Shown: one piece after another, positions 7,724 through 27,031 of the stretch
How positions within the stretch are numbered: the first letter of the stretch is position 1
Layout: each line of letters begins with the position of its first letter
Origin: an uncultured Spirochaetaceae bacterium
Lineage (GTDB): Bacteria > Spirochaetota > Spirochaetia > SZUA-6 > Fen-1364
DNA length: 64,000 bases
Direction of reading: 5' to 3'
NCBI GenBank assembly: GCA_964353885.1
Contig: CAYGXO010000063.1
Span: 14,389-78,388, forward strand
Made by a program: the position numbers and the translations under genes
The notes under the pieces: generated by a model
What the model was told of the DNA's origin: nothing
Seen by the model: only the letters and a program-made list of their open reading frames with translations
The model's database searches: none

Positions 7724-7767
7724 GACCCGCCTCCTTCCCGGACTTGTTTCCCGGTCCGTTTCCCATG

Positions 7768-7802: not shown

Positions 7803-7844
7803 GAGAATGCGGCAGCCAAAAGAGAGGGGAAAGGGGGACTCGGG

Positions 7845-10567: not shown

Positions 10568-11111
10568 CGATGTGCGTGCAGAGTAATTACCACTCTGTAT
10601 CTCGCAAGGAGATCGCGCAAGCTGATGTTCGCTATTTCAGGTTGAAAGTAGGACACAATCCACCATGGAAGGCACGGAGGGTGGATTGCTTCCCACAATT
10701 CATGGGGCCCCTTCTGGCTTTGGGCTTTCTGGACGCTCGTGGCGGGCCTACAACGCATTTTCTGGGGTGCTGCCGTGTGTCATTTCATGGGGGCCCTTGG
10801 GTGGCATTGTCCTGGCTCGCAAGCTTCTGCGAGGCGGGAGAGAATCGTTCACCGCCCACCCGAACTACGCCGCCACGCGATCCTGGGTGGCCTTTTCAAG
10901 GGCTCAGAGACGGTGTAGCATCGGTGCAGGCCGGGACCAGTATCCCCGGGATTTAAAAAGTGGCCGAACCCCGCGGTAGCTCCGGAGCTCGTCCCGGCTA
11001 TTTATCTCTCAGCCTGCTCCCCTGATCATGTAACTGCTGTCCCGCCTGCCCAACCGCGTTTCGGTGTTTCTCGCTCGTTTCCTGCCTGTTTTACTGGGCT
11101 GCACTGTCCCG

Positions 11112-11882: not shown

Positions 11883-11916
11883 ATCGGTGCAGGCTTTACC
11901 ATTGGGGGGAAGGCGG

Positions 11917-12486: not shown

Positions 12487-12590
12487 AACTGCCTTTCGAT
12501 TTCTCCTAAATCATTAAGGAGTGTCACGCTATCATTATGTCGCGGAGACCTCGTAGAACGGCCTGTGCGAAAGCCTGACTTACACTCGGT

Positions 12591-12938
12591 TCACACATCG
12601 CCGTATTCCTTCCTGTGCCTCTGCTCCGTTGCCGGGCCTACCGTAGAGCGTCCCCGCGGCCGTCTCCTGCCGTCCTCCACAAGCTGAAGCGCCTGGGCCC
12701 GGATTTCTTTCGACCATCTGGCATGGCACCGCGAGCAGCGCCAATCGACTGCAAGCGGGTCCAGGTAATCGTCATGATGTGCCCCGACAGGCACGCGCCT
12801 GCCGCAGTGGGGACACCGGTCCGGCCGCGCCAGTTGCCCGGTCCTAACGGCGTATTTCACCGCCGCGTGCGCCCTGGTGCGCAGTTTCAGAAGCGCAGCA
12901 ACCGTACAGGCAGAAGCGTCGAGGGTCGTGCTACTCAT
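12591..12938 (-). CDS. Small Zn-ribbon / HNH-like protein
   Basis: CPHCGRRVPVGAHHDDYLDPLAVDWRCSRCHARW. It overlaps the primase-helicase stop by 8 nt. It resembles the 22580-22906 product of element 2. Confidence 0.55.
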   Translation of the reverse strand: MSSTTLDASACTVAALLKLRTRAHAAVKYAVRTGQLARPDRCPHCGRRVPVGAHHDDYLDPLAVDWRCSRCHARWSKEIRAQALQLVEDGRRRPRGRSTVGPATEQRHRKEYGDV

Positions 12939-14547: not shown

Positions 14548-15347
14548 CCTGCCCTCCCGAATAACTGCGCGCCGATCTCATCCGGCGTCTGCGGCTTGCT
14601 GTCTTTCTTCTGCGCGAAGTCCCGCCATGGCTCAGCCGGCCCGAGGAAGGTGGCGGGATGCTTGATGAACCGCTCTTCGGTTCCCCTCAACCGGCAATCG
14701 GCCCCATATGCTATCGCTGCCGAGCGGAGTTCAGCCTCGCTTGCCCCCTTCTTGATCGTGGCCCGCCACTTGGCGAGAGCCGCTTTCTTTTCTTTCTGCC
14801 GGGGATAGACCTTCCAAAAAGACTCGAAGCCCGGGGGATTTTCCTCTGCCGAAGGTTTCTTCCTGGCAGACGCAGGAGCCGAAGGCGACAATGAATTCTT
14901 ACTCTTATCCTCTATGCCTCTAAGACTCTTAGTCTCTGGTGGACATGAATTGGACTTCGCTTGGACATTGTCCAACTGCCCCTTTGGTGCTCGTTCAAGC
15001 CGCTTGTACGCCGCCCAGCGGGTCTCCGACCCTACCAGCTCTTTCGCCGATTCAATCCAGATCGTCTTGTCTTCCAGAATCGAGACCATGCCGAGCTTCA
15101 CGAAAATCTGCATCGCACTGCGCAGAATGTCGATGTCCGCGTGCAGCACGTCCGCGAGGAGCTTGTCGTTATAGGGGATCTCGGGCCGGAAGCGCAGCCG
15201 GCCGACCGGGTCGGCTTGAATCGCCCTCGTGAGCATCTTCAGCCAGACCACAAGATAGCTGCCGCCGTTCTCCATGCCCTCGATGGCGCGGACTTCCTGG
15301 CTGTCGAAAAAGCGGTCGCTCAGCTTCAACCAGAAGTAGCGACTCAT
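14544..15347 (-). CDS. Phage replisome-organizer N-terminal domain protein
   Basis: MSRYFWLKLSDRFFDSQEVRAIEGMENGGSYLVVWLKMLTRAI matches the replisome-organizer N-domain pattern as I recall it. ATGA-type overlap with the downstream primase-helicase. Confidence 0.7.
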   Translation of the reverse strand: MSRYFWLKLSDRFFDSQEVRAIEGMENGGSYLVVWLKMLTRAIQADPVGRLRFRPEIPYNDKLLADVLHADIDILRSAMQIFVKLGMVSILEDKTIWIESAKELVGSETRWAAYKRLERAPKGQLDNVQAKSNSCPPETKSLRGIEDKSKNSLSPSAPASARKKPSAEENPPGFESFWKVYPRQKEKKAALAKWRATIKKGASEAELRSAAIAYGADCRLRGTEERFIKHPATFLGPAEPWRDFAQKKDSKPQTPDEIGAQLFGRAG

Positions 15348-15526
15348 TCATACCTCTTTGTCAGACCGACGAGCTTGCGCACAGTAACGCCACGGCGCTC
15401 AGCCTCAAGCAGGATCTCAGCTTGCCAAGCGAGCAATCTCCCCCGCTCTTGCCGACGGACAGTCCGTTCCAACTCGGCGTTGTCGCGACGATCGCGCATG
15501 TCCTGTGCCCGGCTTAGAAGACCCAT
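15344..15526 (-). CDS. Small hypothetical protein (60 aa, Arg/Glu-rich)
   Basis: Sits between xis and the replisome organizer and overlaps the latter by 4 nt. Confidence 0.35.
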   Translation of the reverse strand: MGLLSRAQDMRDRRDNAELERTVRRQERGRLLAWQAEILLEAERRGVTVRKLVGLTKRYE

Positions 15527-15535
15527 GGTCCGCCC

Positions 15536-15727
15536 TCAGCGAGAAGCGACGCCGGCGGGCTCGACAGAATTGGACTCGATCCACGCTTGAATTCTGTCTT
15601 CGCTAAAAAGAAGGCGCCCGCCCAATTTCACGAAGGGGATCTCGCGCCGGCAGACCTTCGTATATAGCGTTTTTGGCGTGAGGCGCGTAATCCCAGAAGC
15701 TTCAGAAATTGTCAGTAATCTTGTCAC
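15536..15727 (-). CDS. Excisionase-family HTH DNA-binding protein (AlpA/Xis-like)
   Basis: LTISEASGITRLTPKTLYTKVCRREIPFVKLGGRLLFSEDRIQAWI. GTG start at 15727 with SD GGAGGG. Confidence 0.75.
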   Translation of the reverse strand: MTRLLTISEASGITRLTPKTLYTKVCRREIPFVKLGGRLLFSEDRIQAWIESNSVEPAGVASR

Positions 15728-15728
15728 T

Positions 15729-15774
15729 GTTCCCTCCCTCTTGCTGCATTCACTTGCATCTTACAGGAGGGAAC
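15729..15774 (-). promoter_or_regulatory. Hairpin pairing an upstream anti-SD with the xis Shine-Dalgarno
   Basis: 9-bp perfect inverted repeat GTTCCCTCC / GGAGGGAAC (15729-15737 and 15766-15774) with a 28-nt loop. The promoter-distal arm on the minus-strand RNA is the SD of the GTG at 15727. Confidence 0.35.
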
Positions 15775-15809
15775 TTACGACTCCGTGTTACGGGCCGTAT
15801 GTCGGGGGC

Positions 15810-16709
15810 TTAATGCAATTCCACTCTCAATTTACCGGTAATCTTGGCTAGGGCCGTTCGATCACGCAGTGTAGCTGCCCTATGGTCGTTGTGAATCTGG
15901 TCGCGTCGGGTAAGACTGCCCCTAAGGTAAAAGTGTGCTTCCCAAAATAGTCCGATGTCATTGGTGAGGGTAAGCAATCGTGCCTCGTGCAGTTCATTGA
16001 AGCACCCGAAGAGCCATTTGTATGCGGCTATCGAACGCTGCCAGTCTATCTTCGGGCCGGTGCATTCTCTCGCAGGGTCAAAGAAATGCCCCTCGAAGAT
16101 CTCCTTCCACTGCTCTACGCTGTGCCTTGTCGTGAATCCATCAGGTTCGTGCAGACATATCAGCAAGTGGTGGAAGACCTTCTCCTTTCTTGAGGGCCAC
16201 TCTTCCTGAAGAAGAATCTTGGATGACGGAGTTTCGCACTTGGCGGGTCTGACATTCACCGACTGCGTTTGAAGCAAGTCAACGTCGGCCTGGAAGTGTA
16301 CGGCGAGATCCCTGTTCAGTGCTTTCGAGTCGATGCTTCCCCACGGAGAGAGGTAGGTGTGCTGCACGCTTCCGTCACCTTCGTCCTCTTTTCCAACGGT
16401 CTCATGGACCAGCCAAGGGAACATGTCGCCTCCAAGTTCGGCGTCCGTTCTTCCCCGGATGACAAACATCCCTTGCTGCGCATCATGTAACCATCGACGT
16501 GCAATCGACAGCCTTTCTCGGTCGCTTGCCGCTGCCTGCTTTGCCTTGTCGTATTTATCCAGAATCGCGTCTATCGGTCGCATGGTCGCACCTCCTGCAC
16601 GGTGATCCTGCGACAAAGAAACCAGGGAAGCCGTGCAGGTCGCGGCTTGTCGGATGCCCCCTATCCCTGGTTCGATCATTGCATTGTTATCCCCCACGGC
16701 CTTCCTCAT
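15810..16709 (-). CDS. Orphan 299-aa protein, ATGA-coupled to the integrase; function unknown
   Basis: Its start overlaps the integrase stop (ATGA at 16706-16709). I recognise no motif. It looks visibly less GC-rich than its neighbours. Confidence 0.6.
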   Translation of the reverse strand: MRKAVGDNNAMIEPGIGGIRQAATCTASLVSLSQDHRAGGATMRPIDAILDKYDKAKQAAASDRERLSIARRWLHDAQQGMFVIRGRTDAELGGDMFPWLVHETVGKEDEGDGSVQHTYLSPWGSIDSKALNRDLAVHFQADVDLLQTQSVNVRPAKCETPSSKILLQEEWPSRKEKVFHHLLICLHEPDGFTTRHSVEQWKEIFEGHFFDPARECTGPKIDWQRSIAAYKWLFGCFNELHEARLLTLTNDIGLFWEAHFYLRGSLTRRDQIHNDHRAATLRDRTALAKITGKLRVELH

Positions 16710-17881
16710 CCGATCATCTTCTCTTGGACCGCGAGCACGTCCTTGTAGTCGCCGATACTGAAGTGCGTGTAGTTCTCGAGCATCTCCTGTGTGCGGTGCC
16801 CGGTGAGCTTTTGCAGCTTCACGTCGGCAACCTTTCCGCGAAGGAAGGAATTGAAGAAGTGCCTCCAGCCATGAAACGAGATGTTCCGGCGCATACGCTC
16901 CTCGGGGGAAACCCCGATCTCCTCCAGGGCAGTGTAGAGGTGATCGAGGATGTAATTCTGCGAGAGCGGCCGATCGCGAGCCTCGCCCCAGAAGATTAGG
17001 TCCTCGGGGTCCTGGTAGGGTGAGAGCTGCATGAGCTCACATAAGCGGAGTTGTGTTTTCGAGGGAAGCGGAATCACCCTCTTGGACCCGCGCTTCGGCT
17101 CCTTCAGTCCAAAACGTGTCCAGCCGTGCTCCACTTGGACGTAGCCGTTGAAAACGAAGCGGTTCTGTAGTGCCTGACACTCGCCGAGGCGCATTCCCGT
17201 CGAGGCAGCCAAGAGATTGATTGTGTACTGCCGGCGATCCCCATCCCAAACCTTCTTGATCGTGCGGAGGTTGAAGAGCTTCCGAACCTCCCCGGGAGCG
17301 AGGAAAGAGCGTTCGCGTGGGCGCTCCTCAAGCGGCTCGACGGTGCGCGTGGGATCCACGGCGAGCCTGCCGAGGCGGACGCTCTCAGAGAAGATGATCT
17401 TCAGGCAGGCGAGGATCTGGTTGACGGTGGTCGGGCACAACGGCCCGCCCCGGTGCGATTCCTTCTCGGACAGGTCCATAACGAGCTGCTCGATCGTCTC
17501 TGTCGTGATTTCGGAAATGCGGAGCTCCCCGAGGGCTGGCATGATGTGATTGTCGAGGTAGCCCCGGCAGATCTCCACGTACGTCCGCCCGATGGTTCGC
17601 CCCCGGGCGAGTCGCCGCAGCACGTAGGGGCATTCGCCCCACTTCCACCAACTCGCGGTGTAGTCCTCGAAGAGCGGATCGCTGCCTCGCTGCAACGTCC
17701 CCGCCTTCAGCCGCTCCTTGAGCCAGGTCTCAGCAGCAGAGCTCGAGGTCTGCCCCGTGCTGCGCGCCGTGGTCCGGCGCGTGCCATTCCACAGACGGTA
17801 GTACCAGACGAAGACAGGCTTGCCGTTCTTTCTCTGCTTGGTCTTTCGGCGGAAGAGCTGGAAATCATCACGTTGACGCAT
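16706..17881 (-). CDS. Tyrosine integrase (tRNA-Pro-associated)
   Basis: GMRLGECQAL...HGWRHFFNSFL...LTGHRTQEMLENYTHF. The ORF track extends to 17971, but ATG at 17881 (MRQRDDFQLFRRKTK...) has SD GGGAGGGGG. Confidence 0.85.
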   Translation of the reverse strand: MRQRDDFQLFRRKTKQRKNGKPVFVWYYRLWNGTRRTTARSTGQTSSSAAETWLKERLKAGTLQRGSDPLFEDYTASWWKWGECPYVLRRLARGRTIGRTYVEICRGYLDNHIMPALGELRISEITTETIEQLVMDLSEKESHRGGPLCPTTVNQILACLKIIFSESVRLGRLAVDPTRTVEPLEERPRERSFLAPGEVRKLFNLRTIKKVWDGDRRQYTINLLAASTGMRLGECQALQNRFVFNGYVQVEHGWTRFGLKEPKRGSKRVIPLPSKTQLRLCELMQLSPYQDPEDLIFWGEARDRPLSQNYILDHLYTALEEIGVSPEERMRRNISFHGWRHFFNSFLRGKVADVKLQKLTGHRTQEMLENYTHFSIGDYKDVLAVQEKMIG

Positions 17882-18001
17882 AGATACCCCCTCCCTGAGA
17901 AAAGCACCTGGAGAGGGAAGCCAGGTCACACAACAGGTCACACGGGCTGCTGCCGAGAATCGGCAGATCACGGAAATGCCCTGTTTTGCTGGCTTTTCTT
18001 G

Positions 18002-18074
18002 TCGGGCTGGGCGGGTTTGAACCGCCGGCCTTTCGGTCCCGAACCGAACGCGCTACCAACTGCGCTACAGCCCG
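18002..18074 (-). tRNA. tRNA-Pro (anticodon CGG)
   Basis: Manual cloverleaf: CGGGCTG TA GCGC AGTTGGTA GCGC G TTCGG TTCGGGA CCGAA AGGCC GGCGG TTCAAAC CCGCC CAGCCCG A. All stems are Watson-Crick. CCA is not encoded. Confidence 0.9.
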
Positions 18075-18147: not shown

Positions 18148-18181
18148 AAAAAAAGAGCGGGAGCGACGGGACTTGAACCCG
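18148..18181. repeat. Distal att repeat of element 2 (copy of the tRNA-Asp 3' end plus trailer)
   Basis: aaaaaaagagcgggagcgacgggacttgaacccg is identical to 26948-26981. The flanking sequence has no matching tRNA 5' half. Confidence 0.85.
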
Positions 18182-18343
18182 AGCGGAAACCCTGCCACGG
18201 GTTGCCGTCTCATGCCATCCGCCCGCCATTCCCTTACTCGGCAAAGACCTGCGGTTTCCCTCCCTGCCAAGTGTTGCCAAGACTTGCCCAGGAATGTACG
18301 GCATTTTCAGAATATTGTCAACAGTGCTGGCTACCGGGCATTG

Positions 18344-18366
18344 AAAAACCCCCCAGGGCGGGGGGC
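18344..18366 (-). terminator. Rho-independent terminator after the last gene of element 2
   Basis: The minus strand reads G CCCCCC GCCCT GGGGGG TTTTT, about 20 nt after the stop at 18385. Confidence 0.7.
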
Positions 18367-18384
18367 TTGTACCAGGCAGGCCGG

Positions 18385-18798
18385 TCAGTCGGGCAGCTTG
18401 ACGCCGAAGGCATCGGCGCCGCCCTTCGGTCCTCCACGCTTCCTGCACAGCCACGCCGGCTCGGGGAGCTCGCACGTCGGCGCGTGCTGCTCCTCGCTCG
18501 CCATCTTCAGGAGCGCATCGAAGCTCTCGACGCCGATCGGGACGCCGGCGGCGATCTCGCGCATCTCCTGCGCCAGGATCTGCACCGCTTCGATGCTGCA
18601 GGCGTAGGCCGTGCTCGCCTTGCACTCTGCCTCCTCGCATCGCGCCGCGGCCGCGCGCGCCCTGTAGCTAGCCTCTTCTGCCTGCATGACCGCCCAGGTT
18701 GCATCGTCGAGCGCCCGCTTGGCGCGCTTGCGGAACTCCTTGGGGGACAGCTGGACGGTGACGGCCTTGCGGCCAAGATGGAAATGAAGAAAAGACAT
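18385..18798 (-). CDS. Hypothetical 137-aa helical, Cys-containing protein
   Basis: ORF collinear with the upstream RHH gene. No motif recognised. Confidence 0.5.
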   Translation of the reverse strand: MSFLHFHLGRKAVTVQLSPKEFRKRAKRALDDATWAVMQAEEASYRARAAAARCEEAECKASTAYACSIEAVQILAQEMREIAAGVPIGVESFDALLKMASEEQHAPTCELPEPAWLCRKRGGPKGGADAFGVKLPD

Positions 18799-18897
18799 GG
18801 TGCACCTCCCGTATTCGGTGCCGTCCGTGAAATGAGTACCGGGGAAACCGCCACGGTCGCGGCTTTCGGTGATCAGCCTATCCCCGGCAAGCCTATG

Positions 18898-19116
18898 CTA
18901 CTTCGGCTTGCCTTTCCTTTCAACCTCCTTTCGCCTCGTGCTGAGTTGTTTCTGATTCACCGGCCAGTCGCGAGAGTCCGTTGTCTTCCATGCTGATACG
19001 GCTTTCTCGCAAGCCACTGTCACTACATCTTTCAATGTGCCGCCTCCCCAGGCTGCGTACATCTTCAATCTGCGGAAAAGTTCATCGTCGAACCCCTCAA
19101 TGACAAGTCGCGCCAT
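18898..19116 (-). CDS. Ribbon-helix-helix (Arc/CopG-like) small protein
   Basis: MARLVIEGFDDELFRRLKMYAAWGGGTLKDVV is an RHH-type N-terminus. ATG at 19116 has SD GGAGGG. The track ORF extends to 19221. Confidence 0.55.
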   Translation of the reverse strand: MARLVIEGFDDELFRRLKMYAAWGGGTLKDVVTVACEKAVSAWKTTDSRDWPVNQKQLSTRRKEVERKGKPK

Positions 19117-19265
19117 TTGGATACCCTCCGATAGTGACAATATCGCATAGATCGAAGGTACTGTCAAGGGGTATTTCGGGGTCGACCAATGACACGGCAG
19201 GGCTCCCGCGGATCGCACCACGGCCCGCCAGCGTCACAGATTTTGGAGATTCGACGAGAAGGGGG

Positions 19266-19766
19266 TCAGGGAGCCGAGAGGAGCGCCTCCATCGGGTCGA
19301 CCTCGGGGGGCTTCGGAGGCTTCAGGTCGATGCGGTTTCGCGAGCTCAGAGTGAGACCGAACTCCACGGCATACTGCCGATAGACCGCCCAGGCCGACCG
19401 CATCACGGTCCACTCGGCCATCAGCCGGGGCGGACGGTCCTTGAGATAGGCCGCCAAGGTGCGGCGCCGCCCGCGGGGGCGGTAGATCGCGGCTCGGGCC
19501 TCCTCCGACATCTCGTAGGCCGAGCAAAGGATCTCGAGGGCAGGAAGATCGACGACCGAGAGCGAGGCGTGTTCCACGAGCTCCGCCGCGAGCCTGCCCC
19601 AGAGCTCCCGCCCGATCTTGCCGAGGCTCTTCGGGGCGGCGGGGACCGTCTCGACTTTCGTAGGCTCCGGCTCGTCCTCGGGATTGCGGTCGTGACGAAA
19701 GGTGCCGCGAATTATCTTTGACTGCCGAGGCACGCGCCTGCCGCTCATCCTAGTGCCCATTGCCAC
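19266..19766 (-). CDS. Phage terminase small subunit, P27 family
   Basis: N-terminal RGTFRHDRNP..., LWGRLAAEL, LEILCSAYEMSEEA and C-terminal AVEFGLTLSSRNRI match the P27 TerS pattern as I recall it. Confidence 0.8.
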   Translation of the reverse strand: MAMGTRMSGRRVPRQSKIIRGTFRHDRNPEDEPEPTKVETVPAAPKSLGKIGRELWGRLAAELVEHASLSVVDLPALEILCSAYEMSEEARAAIYRPRGRRRTLAAYLKDRPPRLMAEWTVMRSAWAVYRQYAVEFGLTLSSRNRIDLKPPKPPEVDPMEALLSAP

Positions 19767-19870
19767 TCCATTTTTCGAGTTTCATTCCTGACATCGCTCA
19801 TGCGAAGGTGACCCTCGCGGTCTATGCTCAGACCACCTCGATTTTGCCGGCCCCTTCCCTCGCCGGCCTC

Positions 19871-19909
19871 AAAAGTGCCCGGGGCGCATCGGAACCCGAG
19901 ACCCCGGGC
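19871..19909 (-). terminator. Candidate intrinsic terminator downstream of the 154-aa gene
   Basis: 8-bp GC stem GCCCGGGG/CCCCGGGC with a 17-nt loop, followed on the minus strand by ACUUUU. Confidence 0.4.
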
Positions 19910-19958
19910 ATGGAACCGTGAAACGAACCAGGCGCGTAGACGCATCGCGCCCGAATCC

Positions 19959-20423
19959 CTATGCGAGTGCGCTCACAGTGGGCGATCCTGCATAGCGAGC
20001 GCCCGAGAGAAGCACGACCACCGCGCCCAGTTGTGCGCCGGCTGATGTCAATTTGCAGCACATGAACGGATGGTCGGCGCGCAGCTCTGCGGCGTCCACC
20101 GATATCAGGTACATGGTGTCGGCCACGGTCGCGGATTCGCTGTTGAATGTCGCCGCATCCGTCTGCCGATCAAGCACGTCGCCGTTCGCATCAATCTCTT
20201 TGTAGAACTTGAAGGTGAGCGCGTGTTCTCCAGCGCCAGCCGCGTCCGTGCTCTCGAAGACGGTGACCGCACTCACGTTCACCGCGGCGCCCAAGGTGAC
20301 GAGGATGTCGGCGTGTGAGTAGTTTTTCATGCTCCAGTAGTCTGATGTTTTCCCGCCCGCGAGACTGATGGGCGCCAGGGCGTTGATCCAGTGGCCCTGC
20401 TCAGCTGATGCAAAACCTTTCAT
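19959..20423 (-). CDS. Hypothetical 154-aa protein immediately downstream of the capsid gene (possible head accessory/decoration protein)
   Basis: SD GGAG 9 nt upstream. Position and beta-rich composition only; no motif recognised. Confidence 0.45.
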   Translation of the reverse strand: MKGFASAEQGHWINALAPISLAGGKTSDYWSMKNYSHADILVTLGAAVNVSAVTVFESTDAAGAGEHALTFKFYKEIDANGDVLDRQTDAATFNSESATVADTMYLISVDAAELRADHPFMCCKLTSAGAQLGAVVVLLSGARYAGSPTVSALA

Positions 20424-20477
20424 TTTGATGCTCCAGAAAATAGGGGGAGAGTCGCCCCTCCCCCGCTAGTTGTGAAA

Positions 20478-21878
20478 CTAAGTCCTTGCCTCGAGCGTCA
20501 CGAACGGAGAAACCGTCCCTCCGTGTTCAAGGGTGATCGCCGCATCGAGCAGCGGCTGCCCGTCAACGCGAACCTTGCACCTCATGTCCACCTGGTCGGT
20601 GAGCCACGCGACAGCGTTGCTCTTCTCGAGGGTGAAGTCCTGGCGCAAGGCAATCGCGTACTGCGAGAGGTCGCAGAACATGATGTCGCCCTTGTCGCCG
20701 AGGAGCTGCGCGTGCTCGCTGAAGACCACGGGGCGGGTGAGAATCTTGAAGACCCCGCCGCTCTCGGTCATCACGGGCACGGGCGTCGAGGCCACACCGC
20801 CAATCTGCGAGAGGGAAAGGAGCTCGGGGACCGCGCTCGGGTTGACGATCCACACCGAGCCGGTCGGGTTGGAGCTCCTGCCGAACATGTCGCACAGGTT
20901 GCGGTACTCGATCGTATCCGCGTCCTGGCCGGCAGTCTTGTCAACCGTGATCAGAGCGGGGCTGGACATGATGCCAAGCGGTTTGCCCGCACCGTCGCCG
21001 TTCAAGAACGCCGCGTCCAGGTACCAGCCCAACGCGCGCGAGAGCATCGTGCCCAGCATGTTCACCCCGCCGTTGAGATCGTCGCTCAGCTCGGAGCTCG
21101 TGCGGAGGTACGTGATCAACTTGTTGACGGTGAGAGTCACCATCTTCAGCTTCGGGTCGGCCGGCGTTCCCGTTCCGCCTTCCGCGAGCCAGGTGCCGGT
21201 GATCCCTCCGTAGACGGTCGAGGTGTGCGTGCCGTTGTCCCAGGCGGGAATCGAGAGGCGATCGCTCCTCGGTCCCACGGGGAACACACGAGCGCGCGGC
21301 ATGACCACCATCTGTTCGAGCGCGTTGTCGAGCACCTCAGCGACCTTGGTCTCGCCGATGAAAAATCCTCCGCCGGATGGGACACTCTCGCCCATGGCGC
21401 GCCGCTCACCTTTGTCGAATATCGCGCGGAGCCGCGGGTCTCGCGATTCCACCGCGCGCTGCAGGGAGCGGAAGTCGGCGAAGTCGTCAGCCGCGGGAGG
21501 TCCGAAGAGGTCAGCTGCCCGACACTTCCCGGGGATGCCTCCGCGCTGCTCGCCGGCTGCGGTGTTGTAGCCCCCGCCGTCCACGTTCATGCGCGCGCCC
21601 TCGGGAGTGCCGGCCTTCGCGCGGATTCCGTCGATCGCCTTTTTCATCGCCTTGATCGAGCCGATGCTCTGCATCACCTGGTCGTTCTCGTTCGGGGTGA
21701 AGTCGCGATTCTCGGCGATCGCGGCCTTCTGCATCGCATCGATCTTCCCGTCGAGCGCGCGGATCTCGCTCTGCAGCTTCTCGATTTCGGGGAGGTCCTG
21801 CGCGCCCTTGATAAAGGTCCCGCCCTGCGAGCGCTCCTCTTGCACCGCCCGTGCGGCGGTTTCTGTTTTCGTACCCAT
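20478..21878 (-). CDS. HK97-family major capsid protein with coiled-coil N-terminal (delta/scaffold-like) region
   Basis: The track ORF is 601 aa, but ATG at 21878 (MGTKTETAARAV...) has SD GGAGAA. Body motifs: SVPSGGGFFIGE, RLSIPAWDNG, TLTVNKLITYLRTSSELSDD, AFLNGDGAGKPLGI. Confidence 0.85.
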   Translation of the reverse strand: MGTKTETAARAVQEERSQGGTFIKGAQDLPEIEKLQSEIRALDGKIDAMQKAAIAENRDFTPNENDQVMQSIGSIKAMKKAIDGIRAKAGTPEGARMNVDGGGYNTAAGEQRGGIPGKCRAADLFGPPAADDFADFRSLQRAVESRDPRLRAIFDKGERRAMGESVPSGGGFFIGETKVAEVLDNALEQMVVMPRARVFPVGPRSDRLSIPAWDNGTHTSTVYGGITGTWLAEGGTGTPADPKLKMVTLTVNKLITYLRTSSELSDDLNGGVNMLGTMLSRALGWYLDAAFLNGDGAGKPLGIMSSPALITVDKTAGQDADTIEYRNLCDMFGRSSNPTGSVWIVNPSAVPELLSLSQIGGVASTPVPVMTESGGVFKILTRPVVFSEHAQLLGDKGDIMFCDLSQYAIALRQDFTLEKSNAVAWLTDQVDMRCKVRVDGQPLLDAAITLEHGGTVSPFVTLEART

Positions 21879-22206
21879 GTCGTTCTCCAATTCTTCCGAT
21901 TTTCCGTCTCGCCTCGAAGTGGTAGCTCGGCAGTCGTGTCGGCAGGTGCCGCCGGGTCGCCGCCCGTTCTCGAAAGCGCCACGCGCGCGGCCGCGTTCAT
22001 CCCGTGAACCCGGAGGGTCGCAGTGCGCGCACGGTAACACAAGCCAGCTATGCTGGCGTCGATTCCAAAAACGGGGCAGGAAGTCGGGGTGGATAAAGCC
22101 CCGACCTCGTTGACCTGCCCCTCGGCCAACCGCGCCGGAAAGGAAAGCGACGCGGAAAGCTTCACCATTGTTCCCAGCCGTTCTCGAGGCTCTCGATATC
22201 GAGCCC

Positions 22207-22455
22207 CTAGTCTTTGGCGCCCTGGAGCGAGCTCGCGATCGCCGTGGTGGAGTGCCGCTCCTTGCGCCCGAATAGCATCTCAAGGCCGAGCGGCGACCAG
22301 CCAGGCGGCCACACGCGGGCCGCGGGGGGCGGGACTACGACAGGGATCGTGAGGATCCCGCCCGTGGAGGGCGCCACCTGCGCGCTCGACGGCGAGCTCG
22401 CCTGCGGATAGCGTCTCCCGCCCTGCTTGTTCCAGTGGAGAATGGTCGCGGTCAT
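22207..22455 (-). CDS. Small hypothetical ORF (82 aa)
   Basis: Its start overlaps the stop of the upstream micro-ORF (ATGA). Pro/Ser-rich; the coding status is uncertain. Confidence 0.3.
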   Translation of the reverse strand: MTATILHWNKQGGRRYPQASSPSSAQVAPSTGGILTIPVVVPPPAARVWPPGWSPLGLEMLFGRKERHSTTAIASSLQGAKD

Positions 22456-22583
22456 GGGGTGGGCTCCTCGGGGGGGAGGGCTGCGAGCATCAGCTCGATC
22501 AATTGCGCGATCTCATCTCGGTCGCGCTCCGAGAGGGCCACATCATCGTCGAACACGATATCATATCCAGGTGATACTATCAA
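22452..22583 (-). CDS. Possible 43-aa acidic micro-ORF (TTG start)
   Basis: TTG at 22583 overlaps the HNH-like gene stop (TTGA). Product: (M)IVSPGYDIVFDDDVALSERDRDEIAQLIELMLAALPPEEPTP. Confidence 0.25.
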   Translation of the reverse strand: MIVSPGYDIVFDDDVALSERDRDEIAQLIELMLAALPPEEPTP

Positions 22584-22906
22584 GGTGATACCTTCCCTTC
22601 CCCGTGCGTCACCTGTGCGGCCTGGTAGGTGTGGATCTCGCACCGCACCACGGGAACCCGCATCGCGAGCAGCTCCTCGCCCAGCGAGTAGGTCTGATGG
22701 CACAGGCCGCACAGGACGGTGAGGTCCTCGGGCAGCTCCTCGCCCAGGCGCTCGTAGCTTCGATGGTGGACCTCCAGCGGCACCCCTTCCCGCGGGCACA
22801 GCGCGCAGCGCCCGCCAGCTCGCGCGATCGCGGCGGCCCGGGTCTCGAGCCAGTGCGGGGAGGCGAGGTACTCGGCGTAGCTCATGTAGTCAAGGACCCT
22901 GGTCAT
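22580..22906 (-). CDS. HNH-like / Zn-ribbon phage protein
   Basis: SPHWLETRAAAIARAGGRCALCPREGVPLEVHHRSYERLGEELPEDLTVLCGLCHQ. TGATG junction with the upstream ATPase gene. Confidence 0.6.
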   Translation of the reverse strand: MTRVLDYMSYAEYLASPHWLETRAAAIARAGGRCALCPREGVPLEVHHRSYERLGEELPEDLTVLCGLCHQTYSLGEELLAMRVPVVRCEIHTYQAAQVTHGEGKVSP

Positions 22907-24144
22907 CAGAATATCTCCTCTGGGCGCTCGGGGGGCGGGGAGGCTGTCCCCTTTGCTGTCCCCTTTGCTGTCCCCTTTGCGTCCCCTTTGTCCCCATCGC
23001 CCTTCCCCTCCGTGTCGCGTTTGTCCCCCCTTTCTTTAGAAAGGGGACAATGCGACAGCGGGGAGGGGACAAGGGAGACGAAACCGCGGTCGAGGGTCAC
23101 GTGACCCTGTCCGACGAGGCTTGCCGAGACCTTGTAGAAGGTCTGCCGTATCATTCCGCGTTCCAGGCACGCCCTTCGCCAATCCTCTTGTGTGACTCGC
23201 GCGGCGTCCGGGTCCCTTCCGTCAGCCTCGATGTTCGCCCGGTAGCTGTCCAGTAGGGTCGCAAGAGCCTGTTGGGCCACCTGCTGCCACTTGCCGTGCC
23301 CGGCCTTCCCGGGCGTCTTCCGCGGCTCGTAGTCGGCAGGGACGAGCACCGCCGAGGTGATCGGTTCGCCCTCGTCGGTGCGGCCGATCTCTACCTGCTT
23401 CAGGCGGAAGGCTCGGGGCTCCGCGGGGACGCTGTCTTTGCTTTTCGTGCACTCCACACGGATCGTGCCGTCGGGGTCCACGTCCAGCCTATACTCCGTG
23501 TCCAGCGCGCCCTTCCAGGAGGAATGACCGCGAGAGCGTTCCTTTGCCGCGTGGCCGGGGTGATGGAGTACCAGCGCCGTACAGTGAAACCGCGCTCTCA
23601 GGCGGTCAACTCCCTTGATGAAAGCGCCCATGTCCGGGGCGCTGTTTTCGTCACCCGCTAGGCATCGAGCAAGCGTGTCAAGGACAAGGAGAGCGGGATC
23701 CCCATGCTCCTCGGCGAGCTCTTCGATCGACCTGATCACCTGATCAACAAGGTCCTCGTCGTTCATAGGGGCGGCGACGAGACTCACGAAAAGCGGCAGG
23801 TCCTCCAGCTTTATCGAGTGCTCCAGGCACCAGGCCAAGAGACGGCGCTTGAATCCGCGCTGCCCCTCCCCGACGATGAAGAAGACGGCCTGCCCTAGGG
23901 CGGCAGTCTTGCAGGCGATGTCGACCGCGAGGAATGTCTTCCCTGAGCCCGACTCACCGAACAGGGAAGCTAACGTGTCGCGCTCGAGCCAGCGGTCGGG
24001 GTCGATGTGCTCGGGATTTGTCGTCTCCAGGTCCGAGGCACGAATGAAGCGAAAGCCATAGGGCTTGCCGTTGCCCCCCTGGGCGGTGCTCAACTTCTCG
24101 CCGGCAATGCCGACGAGGGCGGCAGCTCGCTCTGTCTTATCCAT
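22906..24144 (-). CDS. RepA-like / AAA_25-type RecA-fold ATPase with C-terminal winged-helix-like domain (replication initiator-helicase candidate)
   Basis: Walker A GESGSGKTF, LLVLDTLARCLAGDENSAPDMGAF and ALVLHHPGHAAKERSRGHSSWKGALDTEY. The C-terminal tail KGDAKGTAKGTAKGTA is encoded by the iteron DNA. Confidence 0.75.
   Translation of the reverse strand: MDKTERAAALVGIAGEKLSTAQGGNGKPYGFRFIRASDLETTNPEHIDPDRWLERDTLASLFGESGSGKTFLAVDIACKTAALGQAVFFIVGEGQRGFKRRLLAWCLEHSIKLEDLPLFVSLVAAPMNDEDLVDQVIRSIEELAEEHGDPALLVLDTLARCLAGDENSAPDMGAFIKGVDRLRARFHCTALVLHHPGHAAKERSRGHSSWKGALDTEYRLDVDPDGTIRVECTKSKDSVPAEPRAFRLKQVEIGRTDEGEPITSAVLVPADYEPRKTPGKAGHGKWQQVAQQALATLLDSYRANIEADGRDPDAARVTQEDWRRACLERGMIRQTFYKVSASLVGQGHVTLDRGFVSLVPSPLSHCPLSKERGDKRDTEGKGDGDKGDAKGTAKGTAKGTASPPPERPEEIF
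22946..23072. repeat. Iteron-like array (candidate replication origin) in and just inside the 3' end of the RepA-like gene
   Basis: GTCCCCTTTG occurs 4 times at 11-12 bp spacing (22946, 22958, 22970, 22981). TTGTCCCC occurs at 22988 and 23021. A 9-bp inverted repeat CCCCTTTCT/AGAAAGGGG spans 23027-23046. Inverted GGGGACAA copies lie at 23043 and 23065. Confidence 0.6.
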
Positions 24145-24511
24145 GAGCTGCCTCCTTCCCCATCCGGCCTAGCAGTTGTAGAAGGCGGTGCTGGACCTGC
24201 CAGCGGGTCTCGCGCTCGCCCGTCTCCTCCCGAACGAGCCACAGCGCCGCCATCAGCTCGCTGTCGTCGCTGAGTGATTCGGCGATATATTCGAGGGTGA
24301 AGATAACCTCGACGGCCGGCTTCTCGATGAGACCGTGGTCGAGGTAGCAAAGGTCGGCTGCAGCGAAGTACTGCAGGTAGTCGATGAAAACAGCCAGGCG
24401 TTCGCGGAGGGGACGCTCGCGCCTGTAGTAGGCTTCCCACTCAGGGAGAGTCCGCGGGCGATCCCATTCTTCGAGCACCTTGTTGCGGGGTAGATCGGGG
24501 ACGGGCCTCAT
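24137..24511 (-). CDS. Hypothetical 124-aa protein
   Basis: ATGA overlap with xis upstream and an 8-nt overlap with the ATPase gene downstream. Confidence 0.5.
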   Translation of the reverse strand: MRPVPDLPRNKVLEEWDRPRTLPEWEAYYRRERPLRERLAVFIDYLQYFAAADLCYLDHGLIEKPAVEVIFTLEYIAESLSDDSELMAALWLVREETGERETRWQVQHRLLQLLGRMGKEAAHG

Positions 24512-24738
24512 CGCCGCACCTTCGCCCGGATGTGGGGCGGCGCCTGGCGCACGGGTGAGCCGGTCGTGTCGGTACGAGCTGCTACGAATGCTTCGAGGGA
24601 ATTGCGGGGGACAAGGACGCGGCCGCCGAGTCGGGCTACGGCGATTTCACCGCTGCGGATCCATCGGTGGAGAGTCCGCTCGCCGATTGAAAGGGCGATC
24701 GCGGCCTCGGAGATCGAGAAGCAGATACGTTCGGGCAT
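24508..24738 (-). CDS. Excisionase-family HTH DNA-binding protein
   Basis: FSISEAAIALSIGERTLHRWIRSGEIAVARLGGRVLVPRNSLEAFV. Confidence 0.75.
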   Translation of the reverse strand: MPERICFSISEAAIALSIGERTLHRWIRSGEIAVARLGGRVLVPRNSLEAFVAARTDTTGSPVRQAPPHIRAKVRR

Positions 24739-24916
24739 CGAGCCCCTCGCTTACGGGCCAGGCATCCCGTTTGTCCTCCTCCTGTGTTTCCTATGGATCG
24801 AGAAGCCTCTGCCTCGGCCACTCCCAGCCTCGGATTCGCCAGGTCATGCTTTGACGACTCTCGCATTCCAAGGACCCCATCCGCGCCGTCGCCTGAAGCG
24901 CGGAGGGGACCCACTG

Positions 24917-25618
24917 CTAGTTGCTTCCTACTCGCATTCGCCCGGCCACGACCGGGATCCTTGTCGCCTCGGCGTACTCAGAGAAGGCCACGCGGGCCTT
25001 CGTTTTGTCCCCGGCGGCCAGGGCCTTCTTCACCTGCTCCGCCTTCGCGATGACGCGATTCCAAACGTCCTGCAGCGGGAGGAACTCGACGGCGGCCATC
25101 AAGGTTTCTTGCAGGCTCCCGCCCCATGAGCGGCAGAGCTCGGCGAGACGATCGGTGTCGCTCGCGCCGAGCAGCTCCTCGATCACCCTCTTCGCTTCCG
25201 CCTCGCGCTCCTCATCGCTCTGCGCGAAGTCTATGCCGTCCAGGGTCCTCGGCAGCGCAGCCAGGTCCGCCATCGTCACGGTGTCCTTCGCGGGGGCATA
25301 TTCTGCCAAGGCCTTGTACACAGTGTCGAAGGTCGACGCGTCAATTTTGCCATCAGAGCGCAGTTTGCCGAACAGGGACGCCAGCCGCGTCATCGTCGCA
25401 TCCCGCCGCTGTACCATCGCCGAGACAGCACCGATTGCGAGCTGAGCGCGGAGGCGAGCCCGCTCTTCTTTCGTGCGCTGTATTTTTGTGGGAAACGCCA
25501 CGATCGCGGACGCGATGATCTCATTGACCGACATGCCGAAACTCGACGCGAGAATTCTGACATGCTCGCGGACTTCCGGCGTGAGAGAAAGTCCCAGGTT
25601 TTCTTTTCTTTCTTTCAT
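24917..25618 (-). CDS. RHH-like N-terminal domain protein (233 aa), candidate element regulator
   Basis: LGLSLTPEVREHVRILASSFGMSVNEIIASAIV is RHH-like. It lies next to int and has its own near-consensus promoter. Confidence 0.5.
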   Translation of the reverse strand: MKERKENLGLSLTPEVREHVRILASSFGMSVNEIIASAIVAFPTKIQRTKEERARLRAQLAIGAVSAMVQRRDATMTRLASLFGKLRSDGKIDASTFDTVYKALAEYAPAKDTVTMADLAALPRTLDGIDFAQSDEEREAEAKRVIEELLGASDTDRLAELCRSWGGSLQETLMAAVEFLPLQDVWNRVIAKAEQVKKALAAGDKTKARVAFSEYAEATRIPVVAGRMRVGSN

Positions 25619-25628
25619 AGCAGGTAGG

Positions 25629-25657
25629 AATATATCAGAGAAATATTATTAAGTCAA
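25629..25657 (-). promoter_or_regulatory. Near-consensus sigma70 promoter giving a (near-)leaderless transcript of the 233-aa gene
   Basis: Minus strand reads TTGACT-17 nt-TATATT, then only 10 nt (cctacctgct) before ATG at 25618, with no SD. The spacer is AT-rich. Confidence 0.55.
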
Positions 25658-25674
25658 GCCCCTCCGGAAAGATT

Positions 25675-26865
25675 TTATTTGGTAGCTTTCTGTATCCCCG
25701 CGGCGAGCTCCTCTTGGATCGCGGCCACGTCTTTGAAGTCCTCGGCCCGCCACGCGCTGTAGTGTTCTGTCATCTCCTCAGAGTCGTGGCGCGTGATCTC
25801 TCGCACCTTCTCCCCTGTGACACCGCGCCCGCGAAGCGTCGTATTCAGCCAGTAACGCCAGCCATGGAAGGTGACATTTCGACGCGCTCGCTCCTCCTCT
25901 GTGATCCCGATCTCCGCGATGGCAGCCTTCAAAGCATCGTTGACGCGGGAGGCCTCGCAAGGCTTTCGTCCCCGGTTGTAGGAGAAGATGTAGCCGTCCC
26001 AGGTGCACCATGCGTCGATAGTGCGAAAGACGAATCCAGGAATCGGAACATCATCGACGCGCTTTGTCTTCGTCGGCCCTTTGCCGTAGCGGCGCCCCCA
26101 GGACCCGCCGACGTGGATATGATCGGGGAAAAGATCCCCGCGCGTCAGGGCGAGGACTTCCCCCAGCCTGCAGGCCGTGAAGGCCGAGAGAAGACTCGCA
26201 CAGTAGTACAGCATGTTGCCGGCCCAAACAGTGGCCACGGTTGCGGGATTGAGAAGGGCCCGGGCCTCTTCCGTGGACAAGATCCCTTTCCGCCTCGAAT
26301 TCGGCTTGAATGCTTCGACACGGTCCCAGGGATTGCGCTCGATCTTGCCCAGGCGCTCGGCCTCGGCGAGCATGATGCGTTCGACGCTCACCTTGTTCAG
26401 GATGCTTTTGTCCGAGAGGCCCTGCTCCTCCAGGCTGGTGAGGAGGTCCTCACAGTCGCCCGTGGTGATGCGATCGAGCGGCTTCGCGCCATGCGCCGGG
26501 AGGATGTACGTGTGAAGATCCCGCAGCGCATCGTCAGCATAGCGCTGAGAGACCGCGGGCTTGGCTTTGTCGCGGCGCAGTCGACGGTGAATGTACTTGC
26601 ACTCATCCCAGACCCACCACTTCTCAGACTCCGCCCACTCGCGGAGCGTGGGGATGCGCCCGCGCTCGATGATCGCGGCTGGAATGAGCTTCCCGTCCTT
26701 CAGGAGCTTGTTGCAGTGCTTCTCGGCTTTCGTCTTCAGGGTGCACCCGGTGCTGCAGCCCGGGGTGCGCCTGCCGTCCTCGGTGTACGTGCGGTAGTAC
26801 CAGACCATGCGGCCATCGCGGAGCTGGCGCCTGTAGAGTGTGAAGTCCTTTTTGATTCTGCCCAT
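25675..26865 (-). CDS. Tyrosine integrase (tRNA-Asp-associated)
   Basis: ACRLGEVLAL...HGWRYWLNTTL...ITRHDSEEMTEHYSAW. ATG at 26865 (MGRIKKDFTLYRR...) has SD GGGAGGG; the track start is 26898. The N-terminus is paralogous to the element 1 integrase. Confidence 0.85.
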   Translation of the reverse strand: MGRIKKDFTLYRRQLRDGRMVWYYRTYTEDGRRTPGCSTGCTLKTKAEKHCNKLLKDGKLIPAAIIERGRIPTLREWAESEKWWVWDECKYIHRRLRRDKAKPAVSQRYADDALRDLHTYILPAHGAKPLDRITTGDCEDLLTSLEEQGLSDKSILNKVSVERIMLAEAERLGKIERNPWDRVEAFKPNSRRKGILSTEEARALLNPATVATVWAGNMLYYCASLLSAFTACRLGEVLALTRGDLFPDHIHVGGSWGRRYGKGPTKTKRVDDVPIPGFVFRTIDAWCTWDGYIFSYNRGRKPCEASRVNDALKAAIAEIGITEEERARRNVTFHGWRYWLNTTLRGRGVTGEKVREITRHDSEEMTEHYSAWRAEDFKDVAAIQEELAAGIQKATK

Positions 26866-26947
26866 GGATCCCTCCCGGAGACCGAATAGAGTGTACACTA
26901 TTGGCTACCGGGAGGGAAGTAGCTCAGAAAAGCCCGCAAAACACGGC

Positions 26948-26981
26948 AAAAAAAGAGCGGGAGCGACGGGACTTGAACCCG
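26948..26981. repeat. Proximal att repeat of element 2 (3' 24 nt of tRNA-Asp plus 10 nt of trailer)
   Basis: Identical to 18148-18181. Confidence 0.85.
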
Positions 26982-27031
26982 CGGCCTCCGGCTTGACAGG
27001 CCAGCGCGATAACCAGCTTCGCCACGCCCCC
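26958..27031 (-). tRNA. tRNA-Asp (anticodon GUC)
   Basis: Manual cloverleaf: GGGGGCG TG GCGA AGCTGGTTA TCGC G CTGGC CTGTCAA GCCGG AGGCC GCGGG TTCAAGT CCCGT CGCTCCC G. It is followed by CTCTTTTTTT. Confidence 0.9.

Follow-up and report, generated by a model that had tools for sequence, protein, structure and literature searches.

Does a compact chromosomal segment that encodes a capsid protein and a small terminase, with no portal, large terminase (TerL) or prohead protease beside them, represent a functional mobile element or the residue of a phage? The question is raised by 8.8 kb of DNA bounded by tRNA-derived repeats, within the 64-kb stretch analysed here (the window), for which an earlier note had proposed a helper-dependent satellite. 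We consider it probable, from the sequence and its relatives, that the segment is an intact PICI-type phage satellite, integrated in the 3′ end of a tRNA-Asp gene and dependent on a helper phage. This reading rests on a clean insertion, on the intactness of the element and on an architecture that recurs in at least 10 other islands; the comparative evidence supports the earlier proposal well.

A clean insertion at a tRNA-Asp gene

The bounding repeat is a perfect 34-mer, made up of the tRNA-Asp 3′ end plus trailer, that is present in exactly two copies, at 18148..18181 (attL) and 26948..26981 (attR), with none expected in shuffles. The pair brackets 8,800 bp, as first reported, and the similarity stretches to 39 nt at 95% identity. 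attR coincides with the 3′ end of an intact tRNA-Asp(GUC) gene on the minus strand, the integration target, placed at 26957..27031 by ARAGORN and at 26958–27031 by Rfam (66 bits); the right copy therefore comprises 24–25 nt of tRNA 3′ end and 9–10 nt of trailer. attL is an exact repeat without the tRNA body. Neither program predicts a tRNA there; a tRNA-Pro(cgg) gene lies at 18001–18074.

The unoccupied tRNA-Asp/tRNA-Pro locus that the earlier note had suggested looking for was found in related metagenome contigs (JGI). In 12 of the 14 that hold the exact core, tRNA-Pro adjoins tRNA-Asp with a single core copy. The right flank is syntenic in related contigs, with LepA at 78–82% nucleotide identity. 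In two contigs, L176 and L188, this att site is occupied by a decayed relative, whose integrase remnant is 70% identical to the island integrase at the DNA level. These comparisons show a clean insertion that is missing from related genomes. All ORFs of the island are intact and its coding density is 83%. A type I restriction–modification island adjoins it.

A satellite-like gene set with its own capsid protein

All of the genes lie on the minus strand. Nearest the tRNA is a tyrosine integrase (25675..26898; PF00589, 2.5e-7; phrog_1, 9.2e-38), whose true start is probably the ATG at 26865 rather than the GTG at 26898. Next comes a 233-aa ORF without family assignment (24917..25618), a possible regulator with a promoter-like site nearby (25629–25657); relatives with the integrase at that island end carry an ORF of 165–250 aa in the same position. 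A 76-aa excisionase or AlpA-type HTH protein follows (24508..24738; PF12728 HTH_17, 1.9e-12; phrog_66; TIGR01764, 41.2 bits against a cutoff of 28.8), and the equivalent position in a related locus, L003, holds PF05930 Phage_AlpA. A 124-aa ORF (24137..24511) has no family in Pfam, PHROGs, NCBIfam or PADLOC. The putative replicative helicase is an AAA_25 (RepA/DnaB-like) ATPase (22906..24144; PF13481, 2.8e-32; phrog_2850, 1e-47; phrog_906, 3e-32) with no primase domain, and its closest relatives are island genes, from L156 (43%) and L089 (41%). The 12-nt tandem repeats at the 3′ end of its gene (22943–23028) are possible iterons; no origin and no cos or pac site was identified in the island. 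A 108-aa HNH endonuclease (22580..22906) matches PF01844 only weakly (0.0034) and 11 PHROG HNH families, the best at 2.3e-9. It is followed by an 82-aa ORF (22207..22455) of no family, also called as a gene on L001 and L002, and by a 328-nt non-coding gap (21879..22206) with a palindrome at 22187–22208 (inverted repeat I6). Speculatively, the gap could hold a late promoter or packaging site.

The gene 3′ of this gap encodes an HK97-family major capsid protein (MCP) of 466 aa (20478..21878; PF05065, 4.1e-35; phrog_10, 1.5e-38; TIGR01554, 156.6 bits against a cutoff of 27.5). Its start codon is the ATG at 21878, which agrees with a gene predicted independently on a Logan contig. The N-terminus is helical and delta-domain-like; the AF2 model of the protein failed (pLDDT 39.5) and was confident only for an N-terminal helical hairpin, residues 29–88. 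Directly 3′ of the MCP gene, beyond a terminator-like hairpin found by consensus scan only (20443..20464, minus strand), lies the gene for p154, a 154-aa β-jelly-roll protein (19959..20423; AF2 pLDDT 86). Its best fold match is an uncharacterized Caudovirales protein (TM 0.88), and it belongs to phrog_28483, of unknown function. Across 166 related phage and island loci, a p154 homologue was present in 130 and lay directly downstream of the MCP in 111. This conserved partnership suggests a putative capsid accessory or decoration protein. Since p154 itself belongs to the head module, the earlier description went too far in denying the element any other virion parts. The p154 sequence is 60–63% identical to its counterparts in phages L167 and L170, although the MCPs of these phages are only 29–32% identical to that of the island; such discordant histories would be unexpected for a simple decorator of that MCP.

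The packaging gene encodes a P27 small terminase (TerS; 19266..19766; PF05119, 3.8e-14; phrog_83, 6.9e-25; TIGR01558, 47.8 bits against a cutoff of 45.6), and its best relatives among the loci examined are again from L167 and L170 (32–33% identity). Beyond it are a possible 72-aa ORF (18898..19116) with no Pfam or NCBIfam family, preceded by a promoter-like site (19139–19167) and not called on L001, and, last before attL, a 137-aa Ala/Glu-rich helical ORF (18385..18798) that is called as a gene on the Logan contig L001, lacks a Pfam, PHROG or PADLOC family and is followed by a terminator-like hairpin (18350–18365). The initial assignments of int, xis, AAA_25, HNH, HK97 MCP and P27 TerS are borne out by Pfam, PHROGs and NCBIfam, with HNH weak in Pfam; the RHH label given to the 233-aa and approximately 72-aa ORFs had no family support for either.

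No portal, TerL or prohead protease was detected in the island with Pfam, PHROGs or NCBIfam HMMs, in agreement with the initial reading. Clade-specific HMMs detected these genes in 108 phage loci but none in the window, and tblastn returned nothing significant, not even fragments. Tail genes are also missing, and PADLOC gave zero matches on the island.

Related islands and known satellites

At least 10 other islands carrying the closest MCP relatives are flanked by tRNAs, spanning several phyla and many different tRNAs. In ten, bounding tRNA-derived repeats of 25–66 bp define lengths of 8,044–10,380 bp, and none of these ten has matches to the head module (portal, TerL, protease). Ranked by MCP score, the top 21 loci comprise only islands and contigs whose length is insufficient for classification, with no phage-like locus among them. 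A tree of 164 MCPs, 105 of them from phage-like loci, places the island in an island-enriched clade with moderate support (NJ bootstrap 51–56%); six island MCPs sit outside it, and a nested subclade holds compact TerL–MCP–portal(–int) elements (L009, L010 and L039). A full-length MCP carrying its own scaffolding-like N-terminal domain is conserved in many islands and phyla. A tape-measure-like ORF is present as well in two relatives of the island, L007 and L091, and an 8.5-kb relative in IMG/VR was assembled with a 134-bp terminal repeat.

The earlier note could not match an MCP-plus-TerS set to a described satellite family, but Gram-negative PICIs such as EcCICFT073 and PmCI172 (SatelliteFinder ‘type A’) share the layout, and Ccm of SaPIbov5 is a solved case of a satellite-encoded MCP homologue. 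The SatelliteFinder PICI model has five core components: integrase, regulator, pri-rep, capsid morphogenesis and TerS. Like the island, the type A elements occupy one strand over approximately 9–11 kb, integrate site-specifically, lack portal, TerL, protease, tail and lysis genes, and follow the order integrase, AlpA/excisionase-type HTH, replicase, capsid homologue, head-accessory gene. EcCICFT073 encodes int, AlpA, a primase, an MCP homologue, a head-decoration protein and small downstream ORFs. The components are nevertheless non-orthologous: the island has an HK97 gp5-type MCP (PF05065) where EcCICFT073 has a lambda gpE-type (PF03864), the jelly-roll p154 in place of a gpD-type decoration protein (PF02924), and an AAA_25 helicase rather than a D5-type primase, with hhalign probabilities below 1% for both the MCP and the accessory pair. 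After the accessory gene comes TerS in the island, against small unannotated ORFs in EcCICFT073; for packaging, the island has a P27 TerS plus HNH. Its host is an uncultured high-GC bacterium, whereas more than 99.9% of the PICIs found by SatelliteFinder are from Proteobacteria or Firmicutes.

SaPIbov5, a Firmicutes element with Stl-type regulation, resembles the island in encoding an HK97-fold capsid homologue without its own portal or protease; it differs in carrying the cos site of its helpers, which are cos-packaging phages, and in lacking TerS. Its Ccm co-assembles with helper proteins into satellite-sized capsids, where it is confined to the pentamers; the T=4 shell takes the place of a prolate helper head. 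The EPIPs of Mycolicibacterium (2025 preprint) also combine TerS and MCP with an incomplete virion module in approximately 11 kb, but have a serine integrase, scaffolding protein, head–tail adaptor, stopper and tape-measure protein, none of which the island has. P4, PLE, PICMI and VEIME elements are likewise small, integrative and helper-dependent and share int, an AlpA-type regulator and a replicase, with TerS in some cases, yet an MCP gene is found in none of them. P4 relies on Sid and Psu; according to published descriptions, VEIMEs have no major capsid genes and PICMIs no capsid-remodelling genes, and both package concatemers.

A proposed life cycle and its alternatives

In the satellite model, a helper phage would switch on the single-strand operon, probably via the AlpA/Xis-type protein and the 233-aa protein. 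Int and Xis would excise the element, and the AAA_25 helicase would replicate it, possibly from the candidate iterons. The satellite MCP, with its own delta-like scaffolding domain, would build a shell on the helper portal, either by itself or co-assembled with helper MCP in the manner of Ccm, with p154 as a capsid accessory protein in the particle and maturation by a helper ClpP-type protease. We prefer a shell sized for about 9–10 kb. The P27 TerS, aided by the HNH nuclease, would bring helper TerL to satellite DNA, and helper tails would complete the particle. The helper is likely to be an HK97-like phage with HNH, P27 TerS, TerL, portal, ClpP protease, MCP and p154, since the island p154 and TerS are closest to the L167/L170 lineage, though the MCP is not. 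The search for a helper prophage urged by the earlier note came back empty: none lies in the window, and none could be tied to the source samples.

The capsid genes could instead leave capsid size unchanged, with the satellite packaged as a multimer of approximately 4–5 copies in full-size helper capsids and MCP and p154 serving interference or another role. EcCICFT073, with the same layout, was reported to be packaged in this way with lambda: its DNA was recovered only at phage size, in full-size lambda capsids, so a capsid homologue is no proof of small capsids. Interference persisted when its capsid or decoration gene (c1499 or c1500) was deleted, and the tight 8.0–10.4 kb range would also suit an element whose length divides evenly into a helper genome of approximately 40 kb. 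We regard this as unlikely, if worth serious weight, given that PmCI172 and SaPIbov5, both with MCP homologues, make small capsids, and that many islands retain the scaffolding-like domain. A chiefly anti-phage island, rarely or never transduced, in which MCP, p154, TerS and HNH act as decoy subunits, seems more doubtful still. Capsid and TerS homologues carried by satellites are known to act as interference factors, no helper was identified in the window or source samples and a restriction–modification island lies next door; against this stand intact int and xis, perfect att repeats, a dedicated replicase, the absence of PADLOC matches, the spread of the family over many tRNAs within a narrow size range and the terminal-repeat contig from a viral collection.

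Decay of a prophage that kept int, MCP and TerS by chance is very improbable. The incomplete structural set and the degraded relative that occupies this site in L176 and L188 would suit it, but the reduced set and the same size recur without portal, TerL or protease in at least 10 independent repeat-bounded islands from different phyla, and the intact ORFs, coding density, perfect repeats and lack of even fragmentary head genes also argue against it. It is hardly credible that the island is a cfPICI, making complete heads and stealing only tails. cfPICIs share an HK97-type MCP, TerS and HNH with it, as well as int, alpA and pri-rep at the left end, and the compact elements nested in its MCP clade point the same way; their defining TerL, portal, protease and head–tail adaptor/connector, however, were searched for and are absent, and the ORFs without assignment (approximately 1.7 kb in total) are too small for that set.

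We therefore favour the helper-dependent PICI-type satellite. The island represents a new lineage, but its gene layout has been described before, in PICI satellites of E. coli and Pasteurella, and the many tRNA sites and narrow size range of its family indicate frequent horizontal movement under a packaging constraint.

Insertion site of the 8.8-kb island and its neighbour

The window contains exactly two copies of the 34-mer AAAAAAAGAGCGGGAGCGACGGGACTTGAACCCG, one at 18148-18181 (attL) and one at 26948-26981 (attR), where shuffled sequence gives an expectation of zero, which bears out the earlier note's description of a perfect repeat flanking 8.8 kb; with two mismatches allowed, the repeat spans 39 nt. 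ARAGORN and Rfam agree on an intact tRNA-Asp(GUC) on the minus strand at 26957/8-27031, so the right copy consists of the last 24-25 nt of this tRNA and 9-10 nt of trailer, as had been proposed. At the left copy neither program finds a tRNA, again as described, and the idea that this copy belongs to a second tRNA was rejected. A tRNA-Pro(CGG) lies at 18001-18074, 73 bp to the left of the left copy, and the Rfam scan yielded nothing beyond three tRNAs. Between the repeats, every credible gene lies on the minus strand, and the genes together cover 83% of 8,834 bp.

JGI metagenome contigs were scanned for the exact 34-bp core, and 14 were recovered. In 12 of these, a tRNA-Pro adjoins a tRNA-Asp at a distance of 20-140 bp with one copy of the core, and synteny with the window holds over the right flank from 26948 onwards (LepA 78-82% identical at the nucleotide level). 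This single-core locus is the unoccupied attB, and the empty tRNA-Asp/tRNA-Pro site that the earlier note suggested seeking in relatives is therefore present in most of the core-bearing contigs. Related locus L188 has two copies of the 34-bp core, 3,593 bp apart, with only N-terminal integrase fragments between them. The decayed element in L188 and in a second locus, L176, is reduced to two such fragments (122 and 97 aa) whose DNA is approximately 70% identical to that of the window's integrase, indicating that a related element once used the tRNA-Asp site and decayed there. L001, a 4,821-bp Logan contig from run ERR4334727, is identical to the window and stops within the attL core at about 18152. 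As the 34-bp repeat alone would break assembly at this point, the contig end is uninformative on excision.

A second integrative island occupies window positions 1-18074, directly left of the 8.8-kb element and beside the tRNA-Pro. It encodes a tyrosine integrase (16706-17971), a Phage_rep_org_N protein (14544-15347), a Toprim/DnaB primase-helicase (12931-14547), a XerC-like recombinase (6746-7723) and type I restriction-modification HsdM and HsdS (3109-6004), along with a 739-aa TPR protein and DUF4268. Its GC content is 0.53-0.60 vs 0.63-0.68 elsewhere in the window, and no left boundary was found inside the window. At the same tRNA-Pro, contig L181 has an integrase 67% identical to that of the second island.

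Gene content and the missing virion genes

Gene families in the 8.8-kb island were assigned with three HMM libraries (Pfam, PHROGs and NCBIfam), which were in agreement. The island encodes a tyrosine integrase (PF00589; phrog_1, 9e-38), a 76-aa HTH_17/excisionase-family protein (HTH_17, 1.9e-12; TIGR01764, above cutoff), an AAA_25 ATPase (2.8e-32) and a small HNH nuclease (weak in Pfam, 2e-9 in PHROGs). The 76-aa protein has a weak match with MerR (0.0019) and none with PF05930 (AlpA), the family to which the gene at the same position in related locus L003 belongs. The AAA_25 protein aligns to the C-terminal, helicase part of PHROG primase/helicase families, the primase domain being absent. 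At the 3' end of its gene, 12-nt tandem repeats (GCTGTCCCCTTT and variants; 22943-23028) encode a low-complexity (GTAK)n tail and may be candidate replication-origin iterons. Five small ORFs in the island are without assignment: those of 233, 124, 137, 82 and approximately 72 aa match no family, PADLOC included, and the RHH labels previously given to the 233-aa and approximately 72-aa ORFs were not borne out.

[quoted passage not shown] The MCP gene is preceded by a 328-nt non-coding gap (21879-22206) with a palindrome at 22187-22208, which could hold a late promoter or packaging site; as the gap stays open in the MCP reading frame, it gives rise to a spurious 601-aa ORF. Among cultured phages the best MCP match is with Streptomyces phage Dagobah (35% identity over 68% of the query), where a 156-aa ORF annotated as hypothetical lies two genes downstream of the MCP. 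The AF2 model of the MCP, built on 11 sequences, could not be used (pLDDT 39.5). Searched by sequence against the PDB, MCP profile A2 yielded only a weak match (E 2e-5), with the capsid protein of the Rhodobacter capsulatus gene transfer agent (RcGTA; 6TB9, 6TBA). A gene transfer agent or an encapsulin was rejected as a reading, as the island has no cargo and no head-tail cluster and the protein family is Phage_capsid rather than encapsulin.

No island ORF matched portal, large terminase (TerL) or prohead protease families in Pfam, PHROGs or NCBIfam. Custom HMMs for these three proteins, built from related phage loci and confirmed in identity with Pfam, find TerL in 31, portal in 95 and protease in 72 of the related phage loci, and have zero matches anywhere in the 64-kb window. 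A tblastn search with 75 seed proteins gave nothing significant, the top match (E 0.009) lying outside the element. The claim that the repeats enclose no portal, TerL or protease is thus upheld by all of these searches. Nor did Pfam, PHROGs or tblastn reveal genes or fragments of tail, lysis, portal or TerL functions in the 8.8-kb element. A functional or decayed prophage was rejected given the length of 8.8 kb and the lack of any virion or lysis module, complete or remnant.

A 154-aa ORF (p154; 19959-20423) has to be counted with the head genes. An iterated search found a homologue in 130 of 166 related loci, in 111 of them directly downstream of the MCP, and these loci include complete phages with the gene order TerS, TerL, portal, ClpP protease, MCP, p154. 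The AF2 model of p154 is a beta-jelly roll (pLDDT 86) whose top fold match, in BFVD, is an uncharacterised Caudovirales protein (TM 0.88), the BFVD matches being uncharacterised phage proteins; PDB folds gave generic jelly rolls only (TNF-like lectins, ephrin-receptor ligand-binding domains and YomS) at low TM scores. Sequence searches of the PDB yielded no match for p154 or TerS, and tblastn of p154 against cultured phages was likewise negative. In PHROGs the family is phrog_28483, which has no assigned function. Position and predicted fold point to a putative capsid accessory or decoration protein. The earlier view that the MCP and TerS are the only virion parts is therefore correct for portal, TerL and protease but overlooks p154, which belongs to the head module.

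A recurrent island family with a mosaic head module

The closest relatives of the MCP, at 36-51% identity with the N-terminal domain aligned too, are located in small islands comprising an integrase, a ~200-aa ORF, HTH_17/AlpA, AAA_25 or a primase-helicase, small ORFs, a short P27 TerS, the MCP and often p154. We classed 108 loci as phage-like and 27 as islands, the latter count following hand correction of L101, L009 and L010 and including the second L125 copy and the window. Every one of the top 21 loci by MCP score is an island or a contig too short to classify, and a single 34-tip clade of a neighbour-joining tree holds 21 of the 27 island MCPs, with a bootstrap of only 51-56%. Direct repeats of tRNA origin, 25-66 bp long, enclose ten islands; each sits at a different tRNA gene, and the ten genes represent nine amino-acid specificities. 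The ten islands measure 9,982, 9,549, 9,679, 9,546, 9,837, 9,929, 8,044, 9,914, 10,380 and 8,741 bp (8,800 bp in the window), and TerL, portal and protease were unmatched in all ten. The MAGs carry host labels such as Desulfobacterota, Nitrospirota, Acidobacteriota, Chloroflexota, Bacteroidota and Spirochaetota. By these sequence comparisons, the island is a member of a recurrent family and not a one-off remnant.

L007, an 8.5-kb relative in IMG/VR, has a 134-bp terminal repeat and no integrase. In L091 (11062-13086) and L007 (3029-4591), a tape-measure-like ORF directly follows the MCP or p154 within the island repeats; both match PhageMin_Tail and that of L091 also Tape_meas_lam_C, an arrangement that recalls EPIP satellites. 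In the Bryobacterales MAG locus L125 (4543-21206), two MCP/TerS/AAA_25 islands lie back to back flanking one tRNA-Val, each with an integrase. Four compact elements (L009, L010, L039 and L106) have the unusual order TerL, MCP, portal and are nested in the island-enriched MCP clade; L009 and L010, IMG/VR contigs of ~9-11 kb, also carry an integrase. These four may be relatives or ancestors resembling capsid-forming PICIs (cfPICIs).

The head genes of the island do not share one history. Its p154 is 60-63% identical to those of two true phages, L167 and L170, with a gene set of HNH, P27 TerS, TerL, portal, ClpP, MCP and p154 followed by tail genes (Phage_tube_2, HCP), and these phages likewise provide the best matches for TerS (32-33%). 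Their MCPs, on the other hand, are only 29-32% identical to that of the window, while the p154 proteins of the islands with the closest MCPs are only ~24% identical to the window's p154. These discordant identities indicate that the MCP tracks a satellite lineage and the adjacent p154-TerS pair a phage lineage, a pattern that would be unexpected if p154 merely decorated its own MCP. On sequence grounds, the helper is most likely to be a phage of the L167 and L170 lineage. The 64-kb window contains no phage of this kind, and the close p154 homologues trace to other samples, none to the source samples ERR4334727 and ERR4334728.

Relation to known satellites

The SatelliteFinder definition of a PICI comprises an integrase, a regulator, a primase-replicase, capsid morphogenesis and TerS as its core and disallows genes for tail, holin, portal and connector; the regulation module is an alpA, merR or stl homologue and the primase-replicase adjoins the origin (Fillol-Salom 2018, SatelliteFinder). 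Compared by description, the architecture of the island appears to fit. It has a site-specific integrase (PF00589, phrog_1) with a specific att site (the 34-bp core and 12 empty-site contigs), a small terminase (PF05119, TIGR01558) and, for capsid morphogenesis, the HK97-family MCP homologue and p154, while tail, holin, portal and head-tail connector or adaptor genes appear absent by Pfam, PHROGs, NCBIfam, the portal HMM and tblastn. The MCP and p154 resemble c1499/c1500 of the Gram-negative PICI EcCICFT073 and the MCP homologue of PmCI172 in function, by analogy and not orthology. EcCICFT073, from E. coli CFT073, is ~10.7 kb on one strand and encodes, in this order, int, AlpA, small ORFs, a D5-type primase, SSB, PerC, an MCP (Phage_cap_E), a gpD-type decoration protein and small ORFs. 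The MCP and p154 profiles are unrelated to its proteins (hhalign probability <1%), so that, as judged from these profiles, the island is an analogous build of HK97/P27-type parts. A structural precedent for a satellite-encoded capsid-protein homologue is Ccm of SaPIbov5, which occupies the pentamer positions in satellite capsids of T=4.

Other satellite types share particular features with the island and were rejected on their gene content. cfPICIs likewise encode capsid genes but require TerL, portal, protease and adaptors; TerL is absent by Pfam, PHROGs, the clade-specific HMM and tblastn, and portal, prohead protease and head-tail adaptor or connector are also unmatched. A P4-like satellite would be expected to carry the Psu-Delta-Sid operon and the alpha primase, neither of which is matched in PHROGs or Pfam. 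EPIPs use a serine integrase and carry a tape-measure protein and a head-tail adaptor and stopper, whereas the integrase here is a tyrosine recombinase and no tape-measure or adaptor match was found. VEIMEs are stated to be without capsid genes, and VEIMEs and PICMIs, which rely on concatemer packaging, have no capsid or capsid-remodelling gene; the island encodes a full-length MCP.

The island is real and intact, and is probably a mobile satellite of the PICI type. The satellite reading of the earlier note is supported by the insertion evidence and the recurrent islands, but its view that no described satellite family matches does not survive, given the fit to the PICI layout. The novelty lies instead in the lineage: its parts are of the HK97/P27 type, its hosts are uncultured, and its size class, shared across phyla, is a narrow 8.0-10.4 kb. 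We consider it possible, if rather unlikely, that this is an uncatalogued multi-phylum satellite lineage, locked to 8.0-10.4 kb, that makes half its own capsid. An HK97 MCP of the satellite lineage, which brings its own scaffolding domain, would assemble a dedicated small shell on a stolen portal, and a ClpP-type protease, also stolen, would mature this shell, while p154 and TerS would be swapped in from the lineage of the current helper. If true, such a lineage would represent a stable intermediate form, with classical PICIs on one side and cfPICIs on the other.

The island family reveals no new principle. PICI-type satellites catalogued so far come nearly all from cultured Proteobacteria and Firmicutes (SatelliteFinder), and our data suggest that uncultured Desulfobacterota, Acidobacteriota, Nitrospirota, Chloroflexota, Bacteroidota and Spirochaetota also commonly carry satellites that encode their own capsid-protein homologue. 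The narrow size range of 8.0-10.4 kb makes the family well suited to comparisons of how capsid size is set by a satellite MCP, and the mosaic of MCP vs p154/TerS offers a sequence-only route to predicting the helpers of uncultured satellites.
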